A stretch of 64,000 bases of DNA. It comes from Escherichia phage vB_EcoM_G5211. The stretch's first letter is position 1, and each line of letters starts with the position of its first letter. Position numbers and translations under genes: made by a program. The notes under the pieces are model-generated. The model was not told the DNA's origin. It saw only the letters and a list, made by a program, of their open reading frames with translations, and ran no database searches. This document shows, piece by piece, positions 48,089 to 59,795 of this stretch. The stretch lies in sequence record MK327947.1. One strand, given 5' to 3'.

Positions 48089-49146
48089 TGAAAATTAGTG
48101 TTATCAATGATGCCGTTGATAGCTTTAAAGCGGGGGTTAAAACCTCCGCTGGTTTTACCTCAAAAAATAAAGGGAAAACATTAACCGCTCAATTCCCCGC
48201 TGAACGTGCTAGCGGTAATGATGCTAGCGGTTATTATATCAACGACTTATATAATAATGGTCTGTTATTCACTGCATACGATTATACATCTCGTACTACC
48301 GGATCGTTGCGTGATTTCAGGAAAAAGAAAAATGTTGCTAGCGGTTTTGGTGGTAGCGTTAATATCGCTGGTTTTGATTTAAATTTGGGTGGGAGAAATG
48401 CTGCATTTGACCGAGAGGCAATTGCTAATATTCTTCTTCCTCGTAGTCAATCTGACGTTGACGCTGCTAGCCATAAGTTTAATGATGTTGGTGAATCTGT
48501 CATTTCTCGCGGCGGTGGTACTTTAGGCGGTGCTCTTTCTAATATGGCATCTACTGCCGTTTTTGGTGGTATCGAAAGTATTACTGGTGGATACCTTGCC
48601 GACCACGGTGAACAGATTTATAATACTGCGCGAAGCATGTATGCGGGTGCTGACGCACGAACTAAAAACTACGTATGGCATTTAACCCCACGTAGTATTG
48701 AAGACCTTCGCAATATTCTGATCATATACGAAACGTTTTTAGAATTGTCTTATGGATCTAGTGGTATTTCCAGCACCGCAAAAGAATTAAAAGCGGAAGT
48801 TGATGCGTGGTATAAAAATACACTATTGAGAAAATCCACCCCAGAGGAAGCGAAGAGAAATGATACTCTGTTTGAAGGGATCACCGATTTTCTATCAAAC
48901 GCAATTACTGTATCTAACCCGACAATATGGATGATCTCTAACTTCGGTAAGCGTACATCGTTTGAAGGGCGTAGCGATGCATTTGGTCCCGCTCAGATCT
49001 CAAGTGTACGTCTGGACAAGTCGCCTGATGGTAAGTTTAATGGTCTTGCTATTTCTCCTAACTTGCCTAGTACATTTGTTCTGGAAGTATCATTTAGAGA
49101 GATCTTGACACTTTCCCGTGGTACTATATTTGGGAGTGCGGCATAA
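48088..49146 (+). CDS. 48: gp48 baseplate tail-tube junction protein
   Basis: 352 aa (T4 gp48 364 aa); synteny. Confidence 0.8.
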   Translation: MKISVINDAVDSFKAGVKTSAGFTSKNKGKTLTAQFPAERASGNDASGYYINDLYNNGLLFTAYDYTSRTTGSLRDFRKKKNVASGFGGSVNIAGFDLNLGGRNAAFDREAIANILLPRSQSDVDAASHKFNDVGESVISRGGGTLGGALSNMASTAVFGGIESITGGYLADHGEQIYNTARSMYAGADARTKNYVWHLTPRSIEDLRNILIIYETFLELSYGSSGISSTAKELKAEVDAWYKNTLLRKSTPEEAKRNDTLFEGITDFLSNAITVSNPTIWMISNFGKRTSFEGRSDAFGPAQISSVRLDKSPDGKFNGLAISPNLPSTFVLEVSFREILTLSRGTIFGSAA

Positions 49147-50078
49147 TGTTTGATTTAAATGACTTTAACGAACAAGCCGCTAACCTTGACTTTCAGCGAT
49201 CTAACTTATTCAGCGTGGCATTTGCCACCACTCCAAGTAATAAGACACAAGCGATCCTAGAAAGTATGGGCGGTGCGGTATATGATATTATACCAAATGC
49301 ATTAAATGACTATTTCGGGATTACTCGTGGTGATTATACTGACGCATTAACAAATCTTGCTGTACAGGGTGTTAGGCGTGCTGTTGATTCATCCGGTGTC
49401 AAAAAGTATCTTTTAGGTGCAATGTCATCCCGCGTAGTTCAATCTCTTCTGGGGCAATTTGATGTTGGTACATATGCGCTTGACTGGTTCAATATGGCAT
49501 ATAAGACAAGCGGTCTTCTGGTGTATGCTGTTAAGGTTCCAGAAAACAGATTGAATTATGAAATGGACCGTAACCACAATGCGCCAAACATTCGAATTAC
49601 CGGACGTGATTTTGATCCGCTTGTATTGAGCTTTAGAATGGACTCTAGCGCATCAAACTATAGAGCAATGCAGGATTGGGTTAACTCAGTAGAAGACCCC
49701 GTGACAGGGCTTCGTGCGCTTCCTGTTGACGTTGAAGCAGATATTCAGGTTAACTTACATAACCGAATGGGAGTTCCTCACACAATCATGATGTTTAATG
49801 GTTGTGTTCCTGTTGGTGTGAGTGCACCGGAATTAACCTATGAAAACAACAACGAAATTACAACATTCGATGTTACTTTTGCGTATAGGACTATGCAAAC
49901 TGGTGCTGTAGGAGAGCAAGCCGCGCGAGAATGGATTGAGGATAAGGCAATAAACGCAATAACAAACACTTTCGGCAATAATTTACTTGATAGTGGGTTA
50001 TCTGCTGCTGGTAATGCTTTATCGCGTCTAAATGGCGTTGGTGGGCGTGTGGTGAATACTGTCACTAACTGGTTCTGA
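49146..50078 (+). CDS. 54: gp54 baseplate tail-tube initiator
   Basis: 310 aa (T4 gp54 320 aa); synteny. Confidence 0.8.
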   Translation: MFDLNDFNEQAANLDFQRSNLFSVAFATTPSNKTQAILESMGGAVYDIIPNALNDYFGITRGDYTDALTNLAVQGVRRAVDSSGVKKYLLGAMSSRVVQSLLGQFDVGTYALDWFNMAYKTSGLLVYAVKVPENRLNYEMDRNHNAPNIRITGRDFDPLVLSFRMDSSASNYRAMQDWVNSVEDPVTGLRALPVDVEADIQVNLHNRMGVPHTIMMFNGCVPVGVSAPELTYENNNEITTFDVTFAYRTMQTGAVGEQAAREWIEDKAINAITNTFGNNLLDSGLSAAGNALSRLNGVGGRVVNTVTNWF

Positions 50079-50087
50079 TAAGCGAAA

Positions 50088-50111
50088 GGCGGGGATTATC
50101 CCCGCCTTTTT
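50088..50111 (+). terminator. Rho-independent terminator after gene 54
   Basis: Hairpin ggcgggg-attat-ccccgcc followed by TTTTT. Confidence 0.7.
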
Positions 50112-50595
50112 ATTTTGCTAAATCATTGCAATATTTTAGTGCCTTAGTTTGAAATTCTGCGCTGTTAAGTTCTTCATAACGGTCATAATCACCGTTTAAT
50201 GCTGCTTTTCTTGCTTCTTGCTCTATCTGCATGTCAGACATGATAATACAGCGATCCCGCGCTTTCATCTTCTCAAGTTGTATAGACTCTTCTTTCTGCT
50301 TGCGCAATTCTTCTTGACGCTTCTTTTCTTCTTGTGCTTTCTCTTCCCGCGCTTCTTTGATTGCATCCTTGAACATCTGCGTTTGTGGTGCTAAACCAAC
50401 TTTAACTCGATCTACGTCTCGACGTTCCATTTTAGAAATAAAGCATGATTCGATCTGATCATCACTTGCATATGCTGCTTTACATTCACGAAGCAAGAAA
50501 ACCGGATCTGATTTAGCATTCATCATAGCTTCCATGTTGGCACAACCAGTAAGCATGAATGCAGCCGCAAGACCAATCAGTTTAATCATTTTCAT
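50110..50595 (-). CDS. Putative lipoprotein (signal peptide with LTGC lipobox)
   Basis: N-terminus MKMIKLIGLAAAFMLTGC; charged coiled-coil-like middle; 161 aa. Confidence 0.6.
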   Translation of the reverse strand: MKMIKLIGLAAAFMLTGCANMEAMMNAKSDPVFLLRECKAAYASDDQIESCFISKMERRDVDRVKVGLAPQTQMFKDAIKEAREEKAQEEKKRQEELRKQKEESIQLEKMKARDRCIIMSDMQIEQEARKAALNGDYDRYEELNSAEFQTKALKYCNDLAK

Positions 50596-51416
50596 TTAGT
50601 CACCTCACCGAAAATTGTAAATTGTCTACGATTCTCATCGCCGAAAGATTCTACTACGTCGTTTACCTTGACGCAAGTCCCGCGCGGTAAAATTACTTCA
50701 CATTCGCAAGGGTTCCATGCAATGGACCCAACAACAAAACCTTTATGATCTTTTACATCAATCACCCATGATACATTACAAGAATGTTGCATCTTTCCGG
50801 TCATGGATTCATATCGATTCTCACAATAAAGGCTAGTGCTGTTTGATAGCCAGCCTCCAAAGATGATCGGTGTCATGCTGGTCGATACAAAGTTTTTAAA
50901 GGTAAACTCCTTATCTTCAATGATACGCTCTATTGTCTGAATGTCAAGATGTTGACCGCGATAAAGAGTACCGTTTAACTTTTCGGTTTTATCCATGACG
51001 CAATCCATCAAATCGACAATCTCTGATATCTCATCGGTCATGTCTTCTTCCCCTAAGAGAGCACCATTTACCCATTCGTATTGCTCAGACACATAATCAC
51101 AGATTGCATTATATTCTGCTGGGGTTATGTTGTTATGTTTGTAATGTTTGAATACATTATCTCCAAAGTCTTCGGAGTGTACTTCATACATCACATTAAT
51201 GATTTTCTTGACAAATCCATAATCTTGTGTCTCACGCTCAAGGAAGCGGATAACCTTCACATAATCATCAAAGTTAATCTGATCGCTGATCATCTCAGTG
51301 ATCATGTAACCATTAATACCCTCAATGTCATATGTTTCGATGTAATTATCCATACGTTCCATCATTGATTCGCGTGATTCTTCTGAAAGACGAAAATCCT
51401 GTAATTTCTTGAACAT
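50592..51416 (-). CDS. Short Alt-like ADP-ribosyltransferase (R-S-E class)
   Basis: LYRGQ (Arg), FVSTSMTP (STS), ECEVILPRG (ExE-like) parallel the Alt catalytic region; 274 aa. Confidence 0.7.
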   Translation of the reverse strand: MFKKLQDFRLSEESRESMMERMDNYIETYDIEGINGYMITEMISDQINFDDYVKVIRFLERETQDYGFVKKIINVMYEVHSEDFGDNVFKHYKHNNITPAEYNAICDYVSEQYEWVNGALLGEEDMTDEISEIVDLMDCVMDKTEKLNGTLYRGQHLDIQTIERIIEDKEFTFKNFVSTSMTPIIFGGWLSNSTSLYCENRYESMTGKMQHSCNVSWVIDVKDHKGFVVGSIAWNPCECEVILPRGTCVKVNDVVESFGDENRRQFTIFGEVTK

Positions 51417-51494
51417 TTTAAACCTCCCATATAACAGAAAACGGGGCTAGTATAAAACTAGTCCCCGTTTGAGTCAACCATTATTTCTTAAAAA

Positions 51495-53546
51495 TTACAT
51501 TTTAAATTTATCTGGCATTGCGTCTACAGATACCAGATCAGCGATAAGCTGACGTAGAGTTGCCTTATCTGCTTTCTTACGTTCGGTTTTAGCTTCGCTA
51601 ATGAAGCTGGAGAAAGACAGGTCAGAAGCAGGTTTAATAACACCTTCACGGATGAATGCATCACCGTCCGCGATCATCTCGCCAGATTCTTGTAATGCTG
51701 CCAGTTCATTTTTGTTCATAATATGTGCCTCAATGTAATAAGTTTCTTGTGAATCCGTCGATGCCGTAGCACGAGTTACCGTATCAAAGGATAACACAAC
51801 ACCGCGAGGAAGTAAAATCTCGCATTCTTTGTAAGCAAATGCTTTGTTACCTACTGGCAATACAGGGATGTTTTCCGCGCCAGCAATGGAGAAAGCAACA
51901 TTAGCGCCACCTTCACCGCGAGAGCCAGCCATAGAATCAACACCAGCAACGGCACTAGCCACGTTTGCATTCCAGCCGCCAAAAATGTTAGGTGCAAGGG
52001 AAGTGCTCACATAGTTTTTAAAGTAAAACGCTTTTTGCTTACGTGCAGTTTCCCACATTTGCGACCGGAAGTCCATACCACGATACAGAATAGTACCCGG
52101 ATCAAGTTTAACGCCATAGTTGGAGAAGGCATTATCCAGTGCATCGCACATCTTGACCAATTCTTCTGGATCTGCGATGCCTTCAAACTCTTCCAGCTTA
52201 CGGTCGGTTAGGAAGTTGTTCATATTGATGTATGCTGCATCGGCATATTCGCTCAACACAAAACCTTCCGCGCCCGGCAGATCAAGATCAATATCTGCCA
52301 TCATTTCACCCATGTTGCTAGCAATTGCTTCAAACATACCGGAAGCAACATTACGTAGGGCATCGGTTTTAATCTGGGTGATGTGACTACGCAGCATTTC
52401 AGCTTTTACATCTGCTGGCATAGACTGGTCTACTCGATCCATTGCCAGGGCGGTGATCTTGTTTTCGAATACTTCCTCGCTCATGATTTCTTTTAAGCGT
52501 TTGATTGATGCTGCGATAACTTCCGCAGACAATGGATCATATTGATCCTGAACTTTTACCAGTTCGCTTACTGCGTATTTTGCATCGGCTTCGCTTTCAA
52601 AAATAGTACGCATGAAACCATAGCGAGTGATAATATCACTTGTCCAGTCATTCAGAGAACGGGCGGTTGAACGTTCTAAGGCTTGACGATCAATCAGAGT
52701 ATTAAACTGTTTCTTAGGTTCGGCTTCGGTGATATCTTCTTCCGGTTTAAGATTAATTTTTTCTGGATGATTCACATAGTCGCTGTTATAGGTCGCTTGA
52801 GTTTTCAGCATTTCTTCTTTAGTCAAACGAGATTTAGCCGCTACGCGTTGTTCTGCTTCCGCGTTTCGTTCTTCTTCTGACACAAGACTAGCCGCATATG
52901 CCTCATCTTTAGTCAGAGATTCACCAGTAGCCTTAGATACCCAGCGATCACCTAAATCACTTTCTACTTTAGTGAACAAGGATTCATCAAGTTTAATCCC
53001 TTTAATCTTATCAATCGCCATCCCGCGACGCTTGACAACAACTAAAGCGATCTTTTTGCTGGTCATTACTTCCTGCTGGAATACTTCAAACTTCGGTGTA
53101 CGACGCACCAAACGCTCTATAACGCGCTTAACCAGTTCGGTCTTACCTTTCATGCGGGATACGTTAAAACGGAACATAACAGCGTCTAATTGCGCTTTAC
53201 GGGCTGTTTCCATAACCACATCAAAAGCACTTGACATAACTGCAATCGGGTTATCGCCTAGACCATTTTTAAGCTGTACAATACGACCGCTTTTGTTCAT
53301 TTCGCACAGTACAACATGTGCGGTCTTGTCACCCATACGAATGATTTTAGGTGTTTTGTTGGTGAAGTTACAAAGACGGACAATCACATCTTTATCGCGT
53401 GTCTGTACTGCAAAAAGCTGTTTAGGATTCTGCTTAGGCTTTAAGCACTGTACCGGAGCAATACTGCCAAAGTTTTCTTCCTCTTCCGTCAACAGCCATT
53501 TCTCGAAAGATTCAATCATTAGATCGTCGATTTCTAAGTTAAACAT
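51495..53546 (-). CDS. alt: Alt ADP-ribosyltransferase
   Basis: 683 aa (T4 Alt 682 aa); ILYRGMDFRS, YVSTSLAP, ECEILLPRG motifs; position next to gene 54. Confidence 0.85.
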   Translation of the reverse strand: MFNLEIDDLMIESFEKWLLTEEEENFGSIAPVQCLKPKQNPKQLFAVQTRDKDVIVRLCNFTNKTPKIIRMGDKTAHVVLCEMNKSGRIVQLKNGLGDNPIAVMSSAFDVVMETARKAQLDAVMFRFNVSRMKGKTELVKRVIERLVRRTPKFEVFQQEVMTSKKIALVVVKRRGMAIDKIKGIKLDESLFTKVESDLGDRWVSKATGESLTKDEAYAASLVSEEERNAEAEQRVAAKSRLTKEEMLKTQATYNSDYVNHPEKINLKPEEDITEAEPKKQFNTLIDRQALERSTARSLNDWTSDIITRYGFMRTIFESEADAKYAVSELVKVQDQYDPLSAEVIAASIKRLKEIMSEEVFENKITALAMDRVDQSMPADVKAEMLRSHITQIKTDALRNVASGMFEAIASNMGEMMADIDLDLPGAEGFVLSEYADAAYINMNNFLTDRKLEEFEGIADPEELVKMCDALDNAFSNYGVKLDPGTILYRGMDFRSQMWETARKQKAFYFKNYVSTSLAPNIFGGWNANVASAVAGVDSMAGSRGEGGANVAFSIAGAENIPVLPVGNKAFAYKECEILLPRGVVLSFDTVTRATASTDSQETYYIEAHIMNKNELAALQESGEMIADGDAFIREGVIKPASDLSFSSFISEAKTERKKADKATLRQLIADLVSVDAMPDKFKM

Positions 53547-53587
53547 TTTATATCCTCTAGTTGATAACCTATAAACCTATATTTATG

Positions 53588-53607
53588 AAAAGGGGGCTTA
53601 ACGCCCC
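53588..53607 (-). terminator. Rho-independent terminator (minus strand)
   Basis: A-run + hairpin gggggc-ttaa-cgcccc; identical motif at 57610-57630. Confidence 0.6.
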
Positions 53608-54108: not shown

Positions 54109-54138
54109 ATTATAGGGGATCTCCGACCCCCCTGTCAA
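54109..54138 (-). promoter_or_regulatory. Early promoter cassette (TTGACA, 18 nt, TATAAT) with GATC palindrome in spacer
   Basis: tgtcaa at 54133-54138, attata at 54109-54114; spacer ggggatctccgacccccc. Confidence 0.65.
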
Positions 54139-54145
54139 CAACTTT

Positions 54146-54664
54146 TTAGTTATTTTTTAATTGCTCATCTTGCAATAGGGCAATCACATGCTGGCGATGT
54201 TCTTCCGATTGAGGAACACCGAAAAAGTTTGTTTTGTAGAAATACTCTAATCGGTCTTCTCGTGTGCTCTCTTCCATCATGATCGCGGGTAGTCCGAGAT
54301 TTCGGAAACGTCGCTTTTCTGCTGGCGTAAAATCACTGTAATACAACATAGAATCATCATTACCAGCAATGCTAAACTCATCATTCATGAAGGAGAATAT
54401 TGCGTTTAAACGCTGTTTACCGTCCACGATTTCGATCTCATAGCGAGAGCCATCATCAATCTTAGCCATTGCGATAGCACCAACCGGAAAATCATTAATC
54501 AGGTTTTCGATAAACATACGTTTGTTTTCGGTGTCCCATACCAAAGGACGCTGATAATCTGGGTTCATGTTGATATAGCCATCTTCTAACCATGCATCAT
54601 AAACAGAGATGACAAAGTTTTTAGTATTGGTATAGTAACGGCGTTTAGGCGTTAAACGGTTCAT
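54146..54664 (-). CDS. DUF262 / ParB-like nuclease-domain protein (DGQQR-type motif)
   Basis: PDYQRPLVWD and IVDGKQRLNAI motifs; ATG at 54664 immediately follows upstream stop (alternative start 54700); about 172 aa. Confidence 0.6.
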   Translation of the reverse strand: MNRLTPKRRYYTNTKNFVISVYDAWLEDGYINMNPDYQRPLVWDTENKRMFIENLINDFPVGAIAMAKIDDGSRYEIEIVDGKQRLNAIFSFMNDEFSIAGNDDSMLYYSDFTPAEKRRFRNLGLPAIMMEESTREDRLEYFYKTNFFGVPQSEEHRQHVIALLQDEQLKNN

Positions 54665-54665
54665 G

Positions 54666-54995
54666 TTATAGTCTCCTGAATGGATCATCACGTAAATCAA
54701 TATCTTTTAAGAACTCATCCCATGAATGGCGGATATTGTTCTTAATTCTCCAGATAAGCGCAGGGATTGAACGCTCTCCCATCTGGAAGTAAGGATCATA
54801 TGATCCGTATGCCCAATATGCTACTACAATTCCACAGTCAGCGCAATAGTATTCTATTTCACTTGCTGGCGACCAAAGTCCATCAATATGATCAGTGATC
54901 TTGCTTTCGATGTTATGACTATGACAATCAGGGCAACGGATGCAATGACCTTGTTTATCGTAATTTGACGTTAGAGAATACTTAAACAATCTCAT
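54666..54995 (-). CDS. Cys-rich zinc-ribbon protein (109 aa)
   Basis: CIRCPDC and CADCG Cys pairs; start overlaps upstream stop (TAATG). Confidence 0.5.
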   Translation of the reverse strand: MRLFKYSLTSNYDKQGHCIRCPDCHSHNIESKITDHIDGLWSPASEIEYYCADCGIVVAYWAYGSYDPYFQMGERSIPALIWRIKNNIRHSWDEFLKDIDLRDDPFRRL

Positions 54996-55711
54996 TATAG
55001 ATCCTTATTGGCTTCAAATACTGCCTTTGCGAATCCTCGCGGGGTAAGTGACCTGATAGTCTTTGTTCTGGTTCCTTTCCCGCCTAGCTTAGAATGCTGT
55101 TTACTGTACCCTTTATTAATCTGCAACGGTTTCTTTTCTGGCATTATAAAGCCTTGTCCGGTCCATAAGCAAGTCTTTTTCGGGTACATATCACGGGCGG
55201 CAATATACTCAGGAAACGTAGGATGCTTATCATCTTCCGGCAAATAACCGCCATATTCCCACGGATGGAACATGTAATCAGGCTTACGCCACATACTAGA
55301 GATAACGCTTACAGGATTCTCTATCATGTAGGGAACTCCTAGCCATTCACCCAAATAAGCGGTTATTTTAGCTGTCCGTACATCATGAACTTGAATCAAT
55401 GGTCCTTGTTCTCGTTTCTTTCGTTCAAAGTGTGCAGCGCCACTAACAGCTAAATTGGTGCACGGTGGGAATGCAAAGATAATATCCGGTTTCCCCCATT
55501 CAAGGTCCATTGCTCTTTCCAGCCAGTTCAAATCAATCCAGGTGTTTACATAAGTAATGTTTGGATGTTCAAATCTGGTATTATACTTTTTGTATGTACC
55601 GTGGTCGGCGTCATCCGCATTAAAGCAGACTACCTTATGACCTGCTTTAGCCCATTCTAGCCCCATTATCCCCGATCCGTCAAAGTTGCAGAATATTAAT
55701 TTTTGTTTCAT
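54995..55711 (-). CDS. Compact DNA cytosine-5 methyltransferase-like protein
   Basis: Motif I-like FDGSGIMG, motif IV PC (FAFPPCTN), motif VI-like IENPV, C-terminal RSLTPRGFAKAV; 238 aa, short for a canonical C5-MTase. Confidence 0.5.
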   Translation of the reverse strand: MKQKLIFCNFDGSGIMGLEWAKAGHKVVCFNADDADHGTYKKYNTRFEHPNITYVNTWIDLNWLERAMDLEWGKPDIIFAFPPCTNLAVSGAAHFERKKREQGPLIQVHDVRTAKITAYLGEWLGVPYMIENPVSVISSMWRKPDYMFHPWEYGGYLPEDDKHPTFPEYIAARDMYPKKTCLWTGQGFIMPEKKPLQINKGYSKQHSKLGGKGTRTKTIRSLTPRGFAKAVFEANKDL

Positions 55712-56485: not shown

Positions 56486-56514
56486 AGTATAGGGGATCTC
56501 CCGATCCCCGTCAA
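56486..56514 (-). promoter_or_regulatory. Early promoter cassette (TTGACG, 17 nt, TATACT) with GATC palindrome
   Basis: Spacer gggatcgggagatcccc; conserved leader and RBS. Confidence 0.6.
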
Positions 56515-56528
56515 CAACTTTTTTAAAA

Positions 56529-59752: not shown

Positions 59753-59782
59753 ATTATAGGGGATCTCCCGATCCCCTGTCAA
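59753..59782 (-). promoter_or_regulatory. Early promoter cassette (TTGACA, 18 nt, TATAAT) with GATC palindrome
   Basis: Spacer ggggatctcccgatcccc, identical to the 56492-56508 spacer core. Confidence 0.65.
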
Positions 59783-59795
59783 CAACTTTTTTGAA

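Follow-up and report, generated by a model that had tools for sequence, protein, structure and literature searches.

Alt of bacteriophage T4 is a head protein present in about 40 copies, and both of its termini are removed by the prohead protease gp21 (PMC9026906). Second alt-derived genes next to alt are common in T4-like phages and are a known feature of this site; Nolan et al. 2006 (PMC1524935) counted RB49ORF183c, 44RRORF188c and T4 alt.-1/alt.-2 among the paralogous duplications of alt. Elements that combine a promoter with a stem-loop (PeSLs) have also been described for RB49 and phi1, one of which was cloned and assayed with promoter and terminator reporters (Arbiol et al. 2010, PMC2839356). 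We analysed a stretch of 64,000 nucleotides (nt) from Escherichia phage vB_EcoM_G5211 (MK327947.1), referred to here as the window, and focused on two minus-strand genes between gene 54 and alt: a short Alt-like ADP-ribosyltransferase (ART) of 274 amino acids (aa) and a lipoprotein of 161 aa. The reading that we favour, with some reservation, is that they form a two-gene early operon for a non-packaged, Alt-derived ART and an envelope lipoprotein.

Over the 1.6 kb around the gene pair, identity was 99.3% to Krischvirus RB49 (OZ035808.1) and 98.6-99.1% to many RB49-like coliphages (phi1, JSE and GEC-3S among them). Judged by these identities, the stretch is part of an RB49-type (Krischvirus) T4-like phage genome. 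In the RefSeq record of RB49, the two open reading frames (ORFs) are RB49p183 (the ART; ORF183c) and RB49p182 (the lipoprotein), between gene 54 and alt. RB49p183 is annotated as 'similar to C-terminal part of T4 Alt protein' and RB49p182 as a hypothetical protein; the counterpart of the latter in phage W115 is called a 'putative lipoprotein'. Both genes, and the paralogy with alt, are already known from public annotation and the literature since 2003-2006. The features of the locus are the following (AF2, AlphaFold2; dN/dS, ratio of nonsynonymous to synonymous substitution rates).

50592..51416, minus strand: short Alt-like ADP-ribosyltransferase, 274 aa (PF03496; PHROG 15144; AF2 model; dN/dS)
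50110..50595, minus strand: lipoprotein, 161 aa (alignments; AF2 model; PHROG 16112, of unknown function; dN/dS)
51449..51478, minus strand: promoter of sigma-70/T4-early type, GTTGACT-N17-TATACT, overlapping the stem-loop of the next line (motif scan; annotated as a promoter in GEC-3S)
51439..51470, minus strand: stem-loop directly after the alt stop, then a U-rich tract; probable intrinsic terminator/attenuator for alt (RNA fold -20.6 kcal/mol, z=-2.7)
51423..51428, minus strand: Shine-Dalgarno sequence GGGAGG for the short ART, ending 6 nt before the ATG at 51416 (sequence reading)
50084..50110, both strands: bidirectional stem-loop terminator common to gp54 and the ART-lipoprotein operon (12-bp stem with 7 GC pairs; -19.6 kcal/mol, z=-4.35)
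51495..53546, minus strand: alt, the full-length Alt ADP-ribosyltransferase, 683 aa (PHROG 802, E=1.9e-179; PF03496, E=2.2e-9; annotated as alt in RB49)
49146..50078, plus strand: gp54 gene, the convergent neighbour of the ART-lipoprotein pair

We observed that the 274-aa protein scored 59.3 bits against Pfam PF03496 (ADPrib_exo_Tox; cut-off 23.4, E=4.3e-16) over residues 82-266, and that PHROG 15144 ('ADP-ribosyltransferase') matched it end to end (E=2.6e-198). Its motifs L151-Y-R153-G, S178-T-S180 and E238-C-E240-V-I-L-P-R-G come in the right order for the R-S-E clade. R153, S178-T179-S180, E238 and E240 were invariant in alignments with short-ART homologs down to 29% identity, with RB49 Alt and with T4 Alt. 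The catalytic Glu, which was to be checked by alignment, is therefore present (E238 and E240) and invariant to that depth. The AF2 model (mean predicted local distance difference test score, pLDDT, 83; predicted template modelling score, pTM, 0.82) had a C3-like mixed alpha/beta ART fold, with an extra helical region over residues ~1-90 and the C3-like ART core over ~95-274. When the model was compared using Foldseek, CDTa, Certhrax, C3bot, Vis and iota Ia were retrieved with E values of 1e-10 to 1e-9. A sequence search against PDB chains gave only marginal matches (Tre1, SpvB and Vis; E>=0.07), and neither protein had a meaningful match in NCBIfam or PADLOC. The initial annotation had described a stand-alone Alt paralog with the catalytic set YRG, STS and ExE before LPRG, and this was borne out by the PF03496 match, the alignments and the predicted C3/CDTa-like fold. 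The dN/dS of the short ART against close relatives was 0.00-0.05, and 58 phage records as well as metagenomic relatives kept its reading frame open. The short ART gene is thus conserved, and it almost certainly encodes an active R-S-ExE enzyme.

The relationship to Alt was examined next to that of other members of the clade. BLASTP aligned the short ART with Alt residues 487-593 at 37% identity (E=1e-16), which confirmed homology to the catalytic part of Alt, as the initial annotation had proposed to check. The PHROG 802 (Alt) profile aligned to it only over positions 330-602 of 674. The short ARTs end about 75 residues before the Alt end (alignment column ~375) and lack the tail ...MPxKF, while Alt, P0007 and P0008 continue. 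In four related loci, PF26846 (Tevenvirinae_ADPRT, ~330 residues), the N-terminal domain of Alt, was recorded for Alt and was missing from the entry of the 274-aa protein. By these alignments, the short ART is the middle helical region of Alt together with the whole C3-like catalytic domain, minus the first ~330 and the last ~75 residues. The short ART shares the catalytic layout (R-STS-ExE, then ...ILPRG), the preceding helical region and the neighbourhood between gene 54 and alt with T4 Alt (PHROG 802; PF26846 and PF03496); the two differ in size (274 aa against ~680) and in the separate PHROG 15144 of the short form.

Identity of the short ART was 29-37% to every Alt tested, that of its own phage included, and 43-63% to other short ARTs. 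Being about equally distant from all of these Alts, it is not a recent duplicate of the alt of its own phage. It is probably an old and separately evolving Alt paralog, as far as these distances can tell. The tandem alt paralogs of other phages (two full-length genes in T2 and JS98, 44RR ORF187c/188c, T4 alt.-1/alt.-2) likewise place a second alt-derived gene on the gene-54 side of alt; the short ART differs from them in that both of its ends are cut back, leaving the catalytic module, and in that it has its own conserved promoter-terminator cassette. In T2 (L022, 650-4804) and JS98 (L023, 2933-7147), the two full-length tandem alt genes lie between the ligase region and gene 54.

In the R-S-E clade, an ExE motif goes with arginine as the acceptor. 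Since the short ART carries ExE, it would by analogy be arginine-specific. Its target plausibly differs from that of Alt, because a family-specific loop, (A/S)WNPxExE, precedes the ExE and the Alt termini are missing. The C2/C3-like toxins (C3bot, CDTa, iota Ia, Vis, Certhrax) resemble it in predicted fold and R-S-ExE layout (Foldseek E ~1e-10, template modelling score ~0.6 on the target), but identity is only 12-20%, and the short ART, as modelled an intracellular phage enzyme, comes without a secretion/translocation component.

We also evaluated the Mod enzymes. The alignment with ModA/ModB, suggested along with that to Alt, did not extend the relationship: BLASTP of the short ART against T4 ModA and ModB gave no significant similarity (E=1.2 and 0.41), and there was no match to phrog_832. 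RB49 has a Mod-family ADP-ribosyltransferase of its own, a 167-aa protein outside the window (OZ035808.1 87198-86698, minus strand) with LYRG and ERE motifs (tblastn E=1e-7; PHROG 832 E=1e-20). With this separate gene, RB49-type phages, going by their sequences, encode three ARTs, namely Alt, the short Alt paralog and one Mod. The short ART as a stand-in for a missing Mod was accordingly discarded. T4 ModA/ModB (PHROG 832) are small, non-packaged R-S-E enzymes made after infection, and by analogy this is the role that we propose for the short ART, although it falls in a different PHROG.

The region between alt and the short ART suggested how the pair might be expressed. GTTGACT-N17-TATACT had one match in the window, with 0 expected in shuffles, and an AT-rich tract lies upstream of it. 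In the stem-loop that it overlaps, 97.9% of cells were paired across 4 lineages, and 2 pairs showed compensatory changes. The -35/-10 hexamers were kept upstream of the short ART in L014, L016, L019 and L024. Hexamers and stem-loop together persist in lineages with ARTs of only 42-63% identity, and L024 has a further variant. On these sequence features, this promoter in a terminator hairpin is a PeSL-type cassette. Like the RB49/phi1 PeSLs, it is intergenic; its early promoter is strong and sigma-70-like, the tract upstream is AT-rich, and the stem-loop is stable and rich in G/C. It is unlike them in that its -10 hexamer lies in the loop and the 3' arm of the stem, whereas at 54109, 56486 and 59753 the stem is wholly between -35 and -10. 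These three minus-strand elements (54109-54139, 56486-56515 and 59753-59783) are near-identical PeSLs of the classic RB49/phi1 type, GTTGAC-(GGGG..GATC..CCCC)-TATAAT/TATACT; the pattern GTTGAC-N17-19-TATAMT occurred 7 times in the window against 0.07 expected.

Upstream of alt (53580-53607, minus strand), we found that a GC stem-loop terminator (GGGGCGTTAAGCCCC) precedes CATAAATA at 53587..53580, a motif that resembles a late promoter. It agrees with the T4 late-promoter consensus at 7 of 8 positions, stands 33 nt ahead of the alt start codon and is weak evidence. In their promoters, then, the two ARTs differ, the short one lying behind a sigma-70 promoter and alt being preceded only by this late-promoter-like motif. 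As the pair has its own sigma-70-type promoter, it is probably expressed early and independently of alt.

Within the pair, the ORFs overlap by 4 nt (50592-50595, TCAT on the plus strand and ATGA on the minus strand), as the initial annotation had noted. GEC-3S has the terminator at 50084..50110 annotated for both strands. The order alt, short ART, lipoprotein and convergent gp54 was kept in eight lineages, with the ART and lipoprotein genes overlapping or abutting in all of them; for a ninth short-ART variant, P0004, the contigs break off at the stop codon of the gene. Each of the two genes was present in 58 records of the phage collection. The co-expression suggested earlier from the overlap gained support from the conserved operon signals and from this arrangement, and the two genes are probably co-transcribed and translationally coupled.

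Two further observations concern the surroundings of alt. In a metagenomic relative (L009 2390-2539), a small ORF has been inserted beside such a cassette: it encodes a hydrophobic 49-aa product and lies between alt and the stem-loop with its promoter. Upstream of alt in the window is a minus-strand ORF (54146-54700), whose counterpart in related loci carries a GmrSD_N (PF03235) match, and a DNA methyltransferase gene (54995-55711) adjoins it.

The N-terminus of the second protein, MKMIKLIGLAAAFMLTGC, read directly, has a positive n-region, a hydrophobic h-region and the lipobox L15-T-G-C18. This fits a PROSITE-type lipobox rule, [LVI][ASTVI][GAS]C with the Cys at position 15-35. G17-C18 was invariant in an alignment of 12 divergent homologs. 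The AF2 model (pLDDT 88.6) was all-helical and included a 62-residue helix rich in E, K and R. The invariant G17-C18 and the helical model upheld the earlier claim of a lipoprotein signal (LTGC lipobox) with a charged helical body. The cysteines of the mature part, C38, C51, C116 and C156, were invariant across homologs down to 23% identity, which is consistent with two periplasmic disulfides. The residue at +2 after Cys18 is Ala, and it was Ala or Ser in all homologs. According to the Lol rule in E. coli, Ala at +2 predicts outer-membrane sorting. On account of this residue, the lipoprotein would be sorted to the outer membrane.

The E/K/R-rich stretch (residues ~88-108; 50270-50330) varies in length, like a variable-length single-helix spacer: P0041 has an 11-residue insertion, and P0014, P0015 and P0024 (156, 154 and 146 aa) have deletions. 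In close comparisons, dN/dS of the lipoprotein was 0.10. By its substitution pattern, the ORF is a real, constrained gene, and with values of 0.00-0.05 and 0.10 neither the ART nor the lipoprotein ORF is there by chance.

The lipoprotein family was found to be small. An exhaustive profile search of 1.84 billion representative proteins gave 11 matches. Ten of these proteins are 103-174 aa long; the lowest-ranking match, to a protein of 1,252 aa that aligned in four short segments, is probably spurious. All family members whose context was examined were in the same T4-like setting. A search of IMG/VR for related loci, starting from the distant homologs P0055 and P0057, found nothing.

A comparison with phage 011D4 (L005) indicated that the lipoprotein gene can be exchanged. 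Nucleotide identity to the window was 97-100% through alt, ART, gp54 and gp48, and fell to 47-57% exactly over the lipoprotein gene. The ART was 100% identical at the amino acid level, while the lipoprotein was 36% identical, with a saturated synonymous divergence (dS) of ~2 against 0.03-0.09 in the flanking genes. The divergent allele (window 50600-50151 against L005 3501-4016) retains the part coding for the signal peptide. Divergence confined to this gene, near-identical flanks and the retained signal-peptide part indicate that the 011D4 lipoprotein gene was replaced by recombination. In L007, L009 and JK32, divergence of the lipoprotein went with that of gp54/gp48 and not with alt and ART. 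Taken with the 011D4 replacement, this pattern means that lipoprotein alleles reassort independently of the ART, which argues against an allele-specific ART-lipoprotein partnership and is compatible with, though no proof of, an envelope-level role of the lipoprotein that is open to exchange.

We also compared the lipoprotein with known envelope proteins of phages. T5 Llp and Cor of phi80/N15/T1 are phage lipoproteins that block superinfection, and T4 Spackle is a helical periplasmic protein. These are, like the lipoprotein, small phage-encoded envelope proteins, but no homology or fold match to it was found. The PHROG 1119 (Cor) match (E=0.007) covered only residues 1-45, the signal-peptide region, and the mature part had no Cor/Llp homology; fold searches with the model returned generic helical matches only. 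That the lipoprotein acts in superinfection exclusion is at this point a guess. No T4 Imm homolog was detected in RB49, and a weak Spackle (Sp)-like match occurs elsewhere in that genome (E=0.049); an argument from the absence of known exclusion genes could not be made. T4 alt.-3, which takes the position of the lipoprotein in T-even phages, was considered as a counterpart and rejected, having no signal peptide and belonging to an unrelated PHROG. In T2 and JS98, too, an alt.-3 homolog is located where RB49-type phages have the lipoprotein.

Together, these results fit a scheme in which the pair would be transcribed early in infection from its own sigma-70-type promoter. The short ART would be made inside the infected cell rather than injected, and would act on host proteins as an NAD+-dependent, arginine-directed (ExE) mono-ADP-ribosyltransferase, in a role more Mod-like than Alt-like. 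The lipoprotein, translationally coupled to the ART, would be exported, receive its lipid at Cys18 and end up in the outer membrane, with its disulfide-stabilised helical body facing the periplasm. Its most likely class of function would be at the envelope, for example keeping other phages out or protecting the infected cell. Several points weigh against this scheme. The genome already encodes a Mod-family ART elsewhere, so that the short ART fills no empty Mod niche. In L025 the alt-ART spacer is only ~26 nt, too short for the element, and no -10 was found there. The alt hairpin may be leaky, with late read-through from alt as a possibility. Neither homology nor predicted fold links the lipoprotein to a known exclusion protein, and no expression, virion-proteome or enzymatic data were found for any Krischvirus. 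Finally, 4 of 6 short ARTs have an (L/I)xE within the first 13 residues, resembling gp21 cleavage and capsid-targeting sequences, which keeps packaging in play.

This last point leads to a different picture, that the short ART is a second packaged and injected enzyme like Alt, produced late, either through transcription that continues past alt or with both promoters contributing, and having an N-terminus that targets it to the prohead. Its own N-terminus, MFKKLQDFRLSE, holds an LxE motif like those at gp21 cleavage sites; the gene is directly downstream of alt on the same strand, and the two full-length tandem alt genes of T2 and JS98 stand at this very site. We nevertheless regard this picture as improbable. 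Both the PF26846 domain and the C-terminal tail, which carry the processed termini in T4, are absent, the conserved terminator and sigma-70 promoter part the short ART from alt, and the 78-nt spacer between them has no TATAAATA-like late motif. As both lost ends carry the propeptides that are processed in the T4 head, the short ART is most likely not packaged in the virion. The decayed alt fragments that T4 has at the same site could also suggest that the short ART is a decaying, enzymatically inactive remnant of an alt duplication, like alt.-1/alt.-2. This is scarcely credible and is already contradicted by conservation: the frame stays open throughout the 58 records and the metagenomic relatives, the catalytic residues do not change down to 29% identity, purifying dN/dS values were obtained and the model is confident.

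We favour the operon reading also over a mechanistic coupling, in which the ART and the lipoprotein would be one functional system, for example an effector accompanied by a partner or protective protein, or a module for joint exclusion. The strict co-occurrence, with overlap or abutment in eight lineages at identities as low as 23-25% for the lipoprotein and 29% for the ART, and the 58 records for each gene, would be expected of such a system. It appears rather unlikely all the same, since the predicted compartments differ (cytoplasm against periplasm/outer membrane), 011D4 pairs an identical ART with a 36%-identical lipoprotein, and in L007/L009/JK32 the divergence tracks gp54/gp48; T4-type genomes are, moreover, generally syntenic, so that linkage alone is weak evidence. 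As phage outer-membrane lipoproteins are often o-spanins, a lysis component (an o-spanin or a unimolecular spanin) was weighed too, and found very unlikely. At 161 aa the protein is much larger than typical o-spanins, its neighbours are the ART and gp54 with no adjacent or embedded i-spanin gene, it ends in a charged helix without a C-terminal transmembrane segment, and its gene is behind an early-type promoter. A better o-spanin candidate is a 66-aa lipobox ORF (MKKMIAIALLASAC...) outside the window (OZ035808.1 72833-73033, minus strand), the only other one in a scan of the RB49 genome.

What this analysis adds is modest: a conserved promoter-in-terminator cassette, a gene pair strictly kept through deep divergence, a lipoprotein family of very narrow distribution and the replacement of the lipoprotein allele in a near-identical genome. 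The genes are annotated and tandem alt paralogs are known in T4-like genomes, so that the points below do not change current understanding. The boldest combination of our results has the lipoprotein founding a new, T4-like-restricted family of envelope factors, whose alleles recombine at the conserved signal-peptide/ART junction and at times move along with the neighbouring tail-tube and baseplate-hub genes, and has the short ART as a non-packaged Alt derivative with host targets of its own. As a whole we hold this to be on the unlikely side. The lipoprotein is one of two lipobox ORFs in the RB49 genome scan, and its allele swapping suggests a role in cell-envelope interactions. If the short ART is active and not packaged, RB49-type phages would reprogram the host with enzymes unlike those of T4, which would offer a natural experiment in the diversification of ART targets after duplication; and if the combined reading is true, the takeover repertoire of RB49-type phages would consist of Alt, the short Alt paralog and one Mod, as against the Alt/ModA/ModB of T4.

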